IMG/VR virus record: IMGVR_UViG_2711768002_000002
Source of the DNA: a virus
Lineage: Duplodnaviria > Heunggongvirae > Uroviricota > Caudoviricetes
Strand: one strand, 5' to 3'
Length of the DNA stretch: 24,957 nucleotides
Within the stretch, counting starts at the first letter, position 1. The number at the start of each line of letters is the position of its first letter. A program made the position numbers. This document shows, in pieces, positions 1 through 3,000 of this stretch.

Positions 1-3000
1 AGGGACAGCTGATAGAAACAGAAGCCACTGGAGCACCTCAAAAACACCATCATACACTAAATCAGTAAGTTGGCAGCATCACCAGCCTTCTTGAGGCTAC
101 CACCTGTTTTCAGGTGTCATTCAGACGTGATTTGCCCCAGATTGGGAAAGCACGCTTTTTTCTCAGCTATCGTCCTCTTATTTTGCCGTTACATTTCTTT
201 TTGCATTCTAATGATTAATTTACAATAATAATATCGGTAATTATTGAGTAATAATAAATTAATTATTGCAAATGTAATTTAATTCCATCTTCGCGTTATA
301 TTCCAATCTTTAATCTCCGCATGGAACAAGTTGCATGCGTGACTATATTAAGACGACTTATAACCACCAAAACATTTGCTTTGCAAGCAAAAACAGTGAC
401 CATTGACTCTAAGAAAATTCCGATCTATTGTTAGGGTCATCAAAGTTACTTAACAGTATTCCGAAATGAAAATACAAAGCAAGCTAATTGTCTTATTAAA
501 CATTATTATTGCATTTATATTATTTGAGCTTTTAGCTCAAAAATTTGGTTTGAGTACATTATTTTAAAGCAAGATAAACAATATCGGGCACTCTAGTTTT
601 TATAATTAACAATTAAACGTCCATAAAATGTTATTTACTTTTCTTCGCTATTGTCATATCTTAATATAGTGGCTTACGCCACTCTACTTTCATCACATTT
701 TGTACGTTTATGTACTCGCCATGAAGCTCTTTCATGGCGATTTTTTATTCTTAATCCAAGAACATACTCCCTACCTATAGCAAAATCACTTTTTTAACAA
801 AAGAATAACGTATTTAGGTAATCATTACGAATTTACCCTATAGGTGCTACTGGCCATTCAATATCCGGTGCAGTTGATGTATCAACACGGTTCAGCAACA
901 CCCGATACTTTTTCCAAGCTTCCAGCAACAAGGTTTCTTTCTCCGTTGCGATCTCCAGATCCACAGCATCCTGAAGCGGCGCTATATGCTCACTGGCTAC
1001 CTGCATCAGGCTGTTTTTTGTTTCTTCCGCCTCCCGGATCCGGAACAGTTTTTCTGCTTCCGTATCCTTCACCCAGGCTGTGCCGTTCCACTTCTGAAAC
1101 TCCCCTTCCGGGGATAACCAGGTGACATTTTCCGGTAATGAGCCGAGTTCAGAAATAAATAACGCGTCGCCGGAAGCCACGTCATAAACCGTTTTACCCC
1201 GATGATCTTCAACGAGATGCCACGATGACTCATCACTGTTGAAAACAGCCACGAAACCAGCCGGAATATCTGGCGGTGCAATATCGGTACTGTTTGCAGG
1301 CAGACCTGTATGAGGCGGAATATATGCGTCACCTTCACCAATAAATTCATTAGTTCCGGCCAGCAGGTTATAAATTTTTATGGTCCGTGCTTGTTCACTC
1401 ATTCTGAATGCCATTATGCGAGCCTCACAATATAGTTAAATGCGATGTTTTTGACGGTGTTTTCCGCGTTACCAGCAGCGTTAACGGTGATGGTGTGTCC
1501 ATGTGAACCAATCGCAACAGAGTGCGTATGAGCACCAATACCGACAGTATGCGCGTGTGCACCCGCAGATGCTGCTGTGCCGGACAGTGAGTGTGTATGG
1601 TTTCCTTCTGAAGATGATTTACCTACCCATTGGGAGGTGCCACTGGTTAATGAGCCACTGATACCAACCTGATTAGTCCCGCTAACTTGAGTACTCCCTG
1701 CCGGAAACATTCCAGTAGGTTGACTCCCGCTATTCGTTCTGGGCCCAGTCTGACTATGTTGGTGGGCCCCAGCTGAACTTGTAGAGCCGCTCAGACTGTG
1801 CGTATGCGCCCCGGTGTTATTCGTGGATTTAGTGCCGTAATCAAACGACGATGTGGTTTTCGTCCCCAAATCCGTACTGGATGCGCTGGCGCTGTGGGTG
1901 TGCGATTTAATGCCATCCTGTTCCTGAGACAATACGGCACGACCACTGGCGGGCTTGCCCTTAATCGTCCAGCCACGCATATCAGGGATCACGCCTGACG
2001 GATAAGCGGCTGCAAGTTTCGGGTAAGCAGATTTGTCAAAAGTCTGCCCCTGCATCAGGGCATAACCAGACGGAACGGTATCTGATGGCCACGGGATTGG
2101 TGCACCGACTGGATAAAACTCTGCAGGAGGATGAGCCGAGGTGTAAAGCTGCGCCCACGGCGACCAGTTTGCGTCGGTCGTATCCCGTCGTGAACGAATA
2201 AATGCCGGAGCATGAGCACCGCTTGTACCACTCCAGCCGATGAGTAACTCACCTTCGCCAACGGCTGTCATCCCTTTCAGGTGAATGATATTTCCATACG
2301 CTGTTGGATATCCGTTGTTATACACCTCGTATAACTCAAGACCTGCTGCCCCCTGCGTATTGTCTGTCAGCGCGGCTACCCGACCTTTTGAAGCCAGATT
2401 AACTGATGATACTGCTGTTCCACCTGACGGTAGCGCCCCGATCTCTGATGCCGTTGGCTTATTTCTGGAGTTATAGTCCCTTCGCCAGCCAGGTGAATAA
2501 TCTGTTCCGTGATTAATATAGGTAAACTGGGCGTTGGTTGTTCCGCCACCGCTGGATGTGGTCGGAGTGGTAATGCGGATCGTCATCGCTGACTTTATCC
2601 CCATTACTTCAATGACAGCTCCGGCGAGATGAATATTACCGCAGCCAGTATCAGTAATGATTTTATTATTGCCATAAGACCAGGAACCCTTGCACATCCA
2701 GTATGGATGGTTAAATGCTCCCTGAGAATCCAGCCACTCGATAAACTGTGCAGTCGTCCAGTTTCCTGTTGTTGTGCTTACTGACCCACCGAAGGCACGG
2801 CAGGCACCAATATTTTTCGTAAAGGTGTCTTTGCCAGGGATATCCGCACCGTTCTGATCTTTCTGCAGACGTTTCTCAGCATTGTCATTGGCTGCTTTTA
2901 CTGCCTTTGGCGTTGCCGCCAGCGTTTCAGACGTGCTGTTGGTCGCGCTGCTTAGCTGGATTATCCCTTTCTGTGCTGTCGTTGCATCCTGTGCGGTGTA

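Follow-up and report, generated by a model that had tools for sequence, protein, structure and literature searches.

YncL of Escherichia coli (b4598) is a stress response membrane protein for which minimal medium and heat shock are inducing conditions, and its production leads to sublethal depolarization of the membrane, nucleoid condensation, and lower viability (PMC12542507); the link of this protein to sublethal depolarization and metabolic quiescence is recent. It is cut by RseP in vivo (PMC10470546), and Salmonella yncL is sigma-S dependent, with a transcript that was first catalogued as the small RNA (sRNA) STnc1110 and later shown to be coding (PMC5437024). The morons of lambdoid phages such as HK97 gene 15 or lambda lom and bor lie between or after tail genes, deviate in G+C content, and have their own terminator and a promoter-like site; deviant G+C, an own terminator, and absence from most related phages have served as criteria for recognizing them (PMC3594210). 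Here, we analyze a 24,957-nucleotide stretch of a tailed phage (Caudoviricetes; IMG/VR record IMGVR_UViG_2711768002_000002), hereafter the window, in which positions 255-832 probably constitute a prophage moron that encodes a small membrane protein of the YncL family and additionally carries a constrained RNA domain. The module is AT-rich, reads on the plus strand, and lies directly downstream of the tail fiber assembly gene tfa on which it converges.

Comparative evidence identifies the 33-codon open reading frame (ORF) at 466-567 on the plus strand (MKIQSKLIVLLNIIIAFILFELLAQKFGLSTLF) as a real gene under purifying selection. Among 36 distinct sequences the encoded peptide is nearly invariant and comes in only four natural forms, i.e., that of the window, two single-residue variants, and the form of the most diverged lineage (loci L005 and L031), which carries five substitutions. 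This lineage is around 80% identical to the window in the ORF and 57% to 65% in adjacent noncoding DNA, and it keeps the start, length, and stop of the ORF. Between the window and the L005 lineage 12 codons differ, 7 of them silently, with V>I, I>F, F>L, E>K, and S>Y as the five replacements; counted by the Nei-Gojobori method, 11 synonymous and 7 nonsynonymous differences fall on 19.7 and 79.3 sites, respectively, which corresponds to a dN/dS of ca. 0.09 (binomial P = 1.5e-4). Of all six frames, that of the ORF has the lowest pN/pS, and the variable columns are distributed as 8/2/13 over codon positions 1/2/3 (chi-square P = 0.019). Taken singly, the promoter, ORF, and terminator of this unit are mostly no better than chance, and the same 750 bp contain five other ORFs of at least 33 amino acids; we judge the unit to be real because of its conservation, the codon-position pattern, and the homology to YncL. 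The other small ORFs are broken in some lineages or show replacement changes only. Two mini-ORFs on the minus strand (661-735 and 409-477) stay open and were rejected as genes, with all changes between window and L005 in 661-735 being nonsynonymous. We also set aside a terminator-like hairpin at 523-541 on the plus strand inside the ORF as a chance match, its stem being broken in the diverged lineage (GAGC to AAAC).

The only NCBIfam match of the peptide is NF000537, "stress response membrane protein YncL" (E = 1.3e-5, 25.0 bits), with an alignment that spans profile positions 1-28 of 30. Two natural variants of the peptide score 23.5 and 22.5 bits, again with NF000537 as sole match (E from 1e-5 to 7e-5 over the three variants), and eight composition-matched shuffles had no NCBIfam match at E up to 10. 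In a pairwise BLASTP comparison with YncL of E. coli K-12 (MNVSSRTVVLINFFAAVGLFTLISMRFGWFI), 11 of 28 positions are identical (39%) and 64% are positives (E = 2e-7), and the two proteins share the pattern M-x-[IV]-x-S-[KR]-x-[IV]-V-L-[IL]-N ... L-F-x-L-[IL] ... [KR]-F-G. At around 31 to 33 amino acids, both start with a short N-terminus that is polar and basic, continue with a single hydrophobic helix, and carry [KR]FG as a C-terminal motif, and both genes are stand-alone small transcription units. The best 17-residue Kyte-Doolittle window reaches 2.94 for the peptide versus 2.34 for YncL, and the hydropathy profile indicates a single transmembrane helix. The two loci differ in several respects, though: The prophage gene adjoins tfa, whereas K-12 yncL lies between patD and ortT on the chromosome and synteny gives no sign of orthology; no Shine-Dalgarno sequence precedes the prophage ORF, whereas yncL has AAGGTGG; the 3' untranslated region (UTR) of the prophage gene spans ca. 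180 nt and contains a conserved domain, as opposed to a short and unrelated 3' end of yncL; and the C-terminal tail reads LSTLF in the prophage peptide and WFI in YncL. No meaningful match to the peptide was found in Pfam, PHROGs, or PADLOC. Judged by this pattern of similarity, the peptide is a divergent phage-borne paralogue of YncL, i.e., a significant homologue and not an equivalog.

The best conserved part of the unit is not the ORF but a structured island of the 3' UTR at 660-746. The proximal 3' UTR (568-659, plus strand) is poorly conserved, with 568-630 only 57% identical to L005 and interrupted by indels. It is followed by a conserved domain (660-715, plus strand) comprising stem-loop 1 (668-673 paired with 678-683), an unpaired stretch of 18 nt (CUACUUUCAUCACAUUUU, 684-701) that is invariant except for one C/U site and represents a candidate sRNA seed region, and stem-loop 2 (702-705 paired with 712-715). 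The adjacent intrinsic terminator at 716-746 consists of a 10-bp stem (716-725/731-740), a GCUCU loop, and a U6 tract (741-746); its hairpin (716-740) can be drawn with 10 to 11 pairs, of which 5 are G-C, and a U-tract is found on the plus strand only. The island at ca. 660-746 is 94% identical to L005 compared to 57% to 65% in its flanks and around 80% in the coding sequence, and along the unit the identity to L005 runs from 0.51-0.65 just past the stop codon over 0.87-0.97 at ca. 660-740 to 0.53-0.63 before tfa. The fold z-score of the island is -5.9. Across 10 distinct aligned sequences, 684-701 has a single variable position (one sequence also has 1 nt inserted in stem-loop 2 next to it) and standard pairs make up 98% of pair cells; of five variable stem pairs, three change to G-U, and the two other breaks affect helix-terminal pairs. 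The terminator hairpin varies in its loop alone, and the U-tract is present as U6, U5, or UUUCUU. Part of this conservation is ascertainment because the pattern used for IMG/VR lay in the seed; ORF-anchored scans recover the same loci, and the comparison to L005 is independent of the seed pattern, with the proviso that megablast needs an exact word of 28 nt that possibly lay inside the island. We consider it likely from these signatures that the 3' island has a function at the RNA level, and it is possible that it acts in trans as an sRNA of the Hfq type or derived from the 3' UTR.

Dual-function RNAs that also encode a small protein include AzuCR (AzuC) and SgrS (SgrT), and CpxQ and DapZ are Hfq-dependent sRNAs derived from 3' UTRs. 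The same is true of KilS (PMC8175672). Our locus resembles these RNAs in its layout of a small ORF, a conserved unpaired stretch flanked by hairpins, and a terminator with U-tract, yet the 3' island, a candidate for Hfq binding, has no sequence or Rfam similarity to AzuCR, SgrS, CpxQ, DapZ, or KilS. Among the known Rfam families, MicC (RF00121) aligns to 627-754 with 22.8 bits versus a gathering score of 90, and Esr41 (RF02676) aligns to 671-748 with 15.6 bits versus a gathering score of 102; with both of them the locus has in common the general shape of an Hfq-dependent sRNA with a terminator hairpin and U-tract at its end. Membership in either family was rejected with scores this far below threshold, and the MicC-like 5' motifs (GUUAU and UAUUGUCA) are not kept in L005.

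Upstream of the ORF, the unit has a sigma-70-type promoter-like site (TTGACT-17-TATTGT, 403-431, plus strand) with 9 of 12 consensus positions and a C directly before the -10 hexamer. Going by known consensus features, this C and the AT-rich composition would predict dependence on sigma-S and silencing by H-NS. Its -35 hexamer is identical in 35 of 36 distinct sequences, and the -10 hexamer is changed only in the L005 lineage, to TATCGT. If this site is used as a promoter, as we infer from its sequence, transcription would start near 436-439. Some 60 to 130 nt further upstream lies another conserved island at 300-350 (CTTTAATCTCC...GGAACAAGTTGCAT...GTGACTATATTAAGA; strand unassigned) that is 83% to 93% identical to L005 as compared to 57% to 70% just downstream of it. 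A hairpin that could form in this island is not kept in the alignment, and the island may be a binding site for a regulator. A sigma-54 promoter in 300-350 was rejected given that the spacing from GG to GC is 2 nt too short.

The module fits the picture of a moron in its G+C content (0.27-0.34 over 100-800 versus 0.45-0.55 in tfa and stf), in its own conserved terminator, and in its presence in a subset of related phages. Unlike the lambdoid examples with their normal-sized protein cargo, it would deliver a 33-residue peptide together with a conserved RNA domain, and by analogy to these examples we expect the unit to be expressed from the repressed prophage. The core of the module (380-770) is found in 828 of 5,426 complete E. 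coli genomes (ca. 15% or about one in seven) and in 4 of 50,697 phage records, i.e., those of mEp332, PhiR70_1, and ev099 (two records), of which the mEp332 record lists K-12 MG1655 as host. It always adjoins tfa, whatever its neighbor on the far side, which can be a YdeO/GadX-like AraC regulator (at the lambda attB site, bioA-ybhB), ydfJ (in Qin-like prophages), or sitABCD (in sit-linked prophages). Homology in the Qin-like and sit-linked prophages starts at window position 255. Since the tfa side is constant and the far side varies among prophages, we conclude from these alignments that 255-832 is a discrete module traveling with the tail fiber cassette. Separate patterns for the ORF, seed, and terminator each recover the same ca. 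48 IMG/VR loci, and these elements are therefore strictly linked; the few additional pattern matches without the ORF are explained by a contig end or an inserted IS1.

An earlier note on this DNA, made from the sequence alone, had drawn attention to an AT-rich gap between tfa and IS1 (84-832) without any ORF of at least 60 amino acids, and this holds: G+C is at 27% to 34%, and the longest ORFs measure 52, 48, 37, 35, 34, and 33 amino acids. The promoter-like site, the 33-codon ORF, and the plus-strand-only terminator are likewise present where the note had placed them, making up the self-contained unit convergent with tfa that it had proposed, and comparison with the regions downstream of tfa in related prophages, which the note had named as a check, finds the ORF intact in all lineages. 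Its description of an orphan region does not agree with the number of genomes that carry the core. Neither is 84-832 a single region, since these 750 bp are a composite of a separate block (84-168), a spacer (169-254), and the module itself. This is also reflected in the 1,343 of 5,426 complete E. coli genomes with a match to the 749-bp region, which fall into three classes: around 280 genomes match over the full length at ca. 99% identity, several hundred match from query position 172 (window position 255) at ca. 96% identity, and around 500 match query positions 1-85 only (window 84-168). The conserved 3' UTR island and the origin of the left boundary in an IS1-associated deletion of 550 bp (see below) are points that the note did not contain.

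A number of observations weigh against the interpretation of 255-832 as a YncL-family moron with a functional RNA domain. At the level of its parts, the region has six promoter-like sites compared to 4.8 +/- 2.3 in shuffled sequences, i.e., no enrichment, and the site at 403-431 is no better than five others in its match of 9 out of 12 positions; two terminator-like sites were found versus 0.9 +/- 1.0 in shuffles, and the U-tract is interrupted in two lineages. The 25 bits of the YncL match are below the curated equivalog cut-off of 35, and with only two well-diverged lineages the test for selection is essentially one pairwise comparison. In both of these lineages the ATG is not preceded by a Shine-Dalgarno sequence, so that translation would have to depend on an unstructured A/U-rich initiation region (fold energy of -5.2 kcal/mol). 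With regard to the RNA domain, none of 20 pairs is changed on both sides among what are very similar sequences, meaning that there is no covariation; a patch of gene conversion in these mosaic phages could account for the conserved 3' island; no Rfam family claims the island, with MicC, Aar, rseX, and Esr41 at 15 to 23 bits versus gathering scores of 50 to 102; and in an RNAduplex scan of the window with 680-715 the best nonself interaction (-23.3 kcal/mol) was weaker than the best of each of 20 shuffled seeds.

Several of these points could be accommodated if the 3' island were only a cis element of the peptide mRNA, composed of the terminator and protective hairpins that serve its stability or 3'-end formation, with no trans-acting sRNA involved. 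This is quite possible, though we lean against it: The lack of covariation, of an Rfam match, and of an identifiable target would be expected, as would the decay of the U-tract to UUUCUU, and there is no convincing internal promoter in the region (a TATAAT at 601-606 comes with a poor -35 hexamer), but a terminator alone fails to explain why an 18-nt stretch and two hairpins are better conserved than the coding sequence (94% versus 80%). Another reading is that the ORF is fortuitous and the ca. 310-nt transcript or its 3' part is a noncoding RNA. We find this unlikely. The absence of a Shine-Dalgarno sequence, the reluctance of gene callers to call the ORF (3 sequences among 15 billion proteins), and the concentration of conservation in the 3' domain are all in line with it, and yet third-position and synonymous changes dominate in the ORF, its pN/pS is the best of six frames, and a full-length similarity as specific as the one to YncL is lacking in composition-matched shuffles. 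The Salmonella yncL transcript, too, went from sRNA to coding in its annotation (PMC5437024).

The earlier note had likened the peptide to type I toxin-like small membrane proteins and alternatively considered it the signal-peptide remnant of a lost gene. The former comparison is fair with respect to the single-helix architecture, in view of the depolarization and reduced viability caused by production of the closest relative, YncL (PMC12542507); a full type I toxin-antitoxin locus, in which the translation of a 33-residue membrane toxin is restrained by an antisense or adjacent small RNA, has a low probability in our view. The N-terminus of the peptide is basic, small size and hydrophobicity are shared with Hok, TisB, Ldr, Ibs, ShoB, and Zor, and the weak initiation region would fit tightly limited translation, but there is no NCBIfam, Pfam, or PADLOC similarity to these toxins, no antisense or adjacent complementary RNA was detected, the locus has no minus-strand terminator, and the best inverted repeats linking other parts of the locus with the 5' UTR or the start codon are AT-rich matches of 73% to 76% complementarity and thus not useful. 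No antitoxin is known for YncL itself, which also counts against such a locus. The idea of decayed DNA, be it a remnant of a longer gene or the distal upstream region of an AraC-family (YdeO/GadX-like) regulator, appears highly improbable. It is true that an AraC-type regulator on the minus strand is the left-hand neighbor in intact relatives, at 1.5 kb from tfa, and that the area tolerates damage, as is evident from IS1 insertions and deletions. However, 255-832 is unchanged beside tfa in prophages without this regulator where ydfJ or sitD is the neighbor, and stop codon, length, and peptide are kept under purifying selection. A signal-peptide remnant in particular is refuted by the identical stop in a lineage of ca. 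80% identity, by the dN/dS of ca. 0.09, and by an alignment over positions 1-28 of the 30-position YncL profile, which makes the peptide no fragment of a longer protein.

If the YncL-family moron is the correct interpretation, the promoter at 403-431 would give rise to a transcript of ca. 310 nt that starts near 436-439, ends at the plus-strand terminator at 716-746, and encodes a 33-residue single-pass inner membrane peptide. By analogy with YncL, this peptide would insert N-in/C-out in the lysogen and either cause a partial loss of membrane potential or act on a partner in the membrane. Because the unit converges on tfa, late-operon transcripts that read through in lytic growth would run antisense to the unit. 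The 3' UTR domain would act at the RNA level, most likely as an Hfq-type sRNA derived from the 3' UTR or as a stability element. The anatomy of the unit, its distribution, coding selection on the ORF, similarity to YncL, and the extra conservation and stability of the 3' domain are observed, whereas use of the promoter, translation of the ORF, activity at the membrane, and a role as sRNA are predicted from sequence. More tentatively, and with less confidence than we would need to call it probable, the locus can be imagined as a bifunctional prophage RNA that combines the depolarizing YncL-like peptide with the 684-701 stretch as a released Hfq-binding sRNA directed at mRNAs of the host or of competing phages. 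In this case, lambda-like prophages would gain a combined protein and RNA module for lysogenic conversion or superinfection defense that travels with the tail fiber cassette.

The unit adds a mobile phage-borne paralogue to the YncL family of small membrane proteins, which suggests that phages may use such peptides for lysogenic conversion with effects on, e.g., stress tolerance, persistence, or the exclusion of other phages whose DNA entry depends on the proton-motive force. In addition, the strongly conserved 3' domain offers a concrete candidate for a prophage sRNA not described before. The elements themselves are of known kinds (small membrane proteins, morons, and perhaps 3' UTR-derived sRNAs), and what seems new is an unannotated member that remains under the threshold of every curated family. 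RefSeq has no annotation beneath the core, an annotation of the ORF was found neither there nor in the phage records inspected, and the PhiR70_1 record annotates a different, nonconserved overlapping ORF of 37 amino acids. Full-text literature searches for the sequence, the peptide, or an sRNA near tfa returned nothing relevant.

Beyond E. coli genomes and phage records, the metagenome and IMG/VR scans found E. coli-type copies only. A fully degenerate 12-codon pattern identified 24 loci in the metagenome scan, all with one of the three known peptide variants and without any new lineage for the analysis of covariation. Among GTDB species representatives, a protein-pattern scan gave no confirmed relative and a 22-nt seed pattern had zero matches. 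When 1.84 billion representatives were searched exhaustively with HMMER, only the peptide and a frameshift variant of it came up. This variant (P0003, a metagenome protein) is 43 amino acids long and results from a one-base change in the CAAAAATTT run that replaces the C-terminal FGLSTLF; occasional inactivated copies of the peptide thus exist.

Next to the module, tfa occupies 833-1414 on the minus strand, and the tail fiber gene lies at 1414-2697, also on the minus strand. In a ydfJ-linked locus (L004, ca. 3397-3495) and a sit-linked locus (L005, ca. 3396-3495), the far flank of the module is a remnant of ca. 100 nt from the C-terminus of another tfa, oriented like the intact gene. With tfa 3' ends on both flanks, the arrangement suggests that the module moves by recombination within tfa. 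Rfam reports a match of IS009 (RF02111) at 873-1071 on the minus strand (218 bits, E = 8e-55) that lies wholly inside the tfa coding sequence, and this "family" probably reflects conserved tfa paralogues and not an independent sRNA. Further along the window, a run of N (masked or unknown bases) at 3074-3194 lies within the repetitive part of the tail fiber gene, and the apparent dip in G+C at 3000-3300 is an artefact of it and no AT-rich island.

On the other side, the region is bounded by the terminal 83 nt of an IS1 (1-83, minus strand, with the IS1 inverted repeat at its end), which is not part of the module. The identical junction is found in 79 complete genomes, where the element is annotated as IS1A. 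Compared to intact relatives, IS1 replaces 550 bp (L001 4451-5000; compare L059 4316-5083) that include a 3' fragment of a tRNA-Ser, and there is no 9-bp target-site duplication, which indicates that the left boundary of the region arose by an IS1-mediated adjacent deletion. A second, independent IS1 insertion directly 5' of the terminator hairpin was seen in L060 (12575-12610), where the ORF and seed region are removed, and the AT-rich module appears to be a recurrent target of IS1.

Adjacent to the IS1 end, 84-168 (strand unassigned) is the right end of a mosaic block that IS1 has truncated here and that is shared with the ends of other lambdoid prophages. The entire block measures around 200 nt (L001 ca. 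4880-5085; L006 2380-2586) and abuts the tRNA-Ser fragment, to which the homology of 84-168 extends leftward in both L006 and L001. It recurs at the ends of otherwise different prophages, such as an O26 prophage at the Rac site where it lies between a ttcA-like fragment near uspF and NleG effector genes, and it is this block that ca. 500 genomes have while lacking the YncL-like module. Possibly it is a linker for recombination or what remains of an old attachment site. Three hairpins can be drawn within 84-168, two of them small (84-98 and 101-116) and one imperfect (123-156) and adjoined by a U-run (156-161); with a fold z-score of only -1.5, the latter is at best a weak terminator-like element.

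The AraC-family regulator of the intact relatives has 247 amino acids (L001 3501-4244 and L059 3366-4109, both on the minus strand) and is surrounded by IS remnants; the IS1 deletion leaves it with 206 bp of native upstream DNA. In NCBIfam it comes closest to YdeO (149 bits) and GadX, far under the cut-off in either case, and we take it to be a prophage-borne regulator of acid-resistance type like PatE and Psr.

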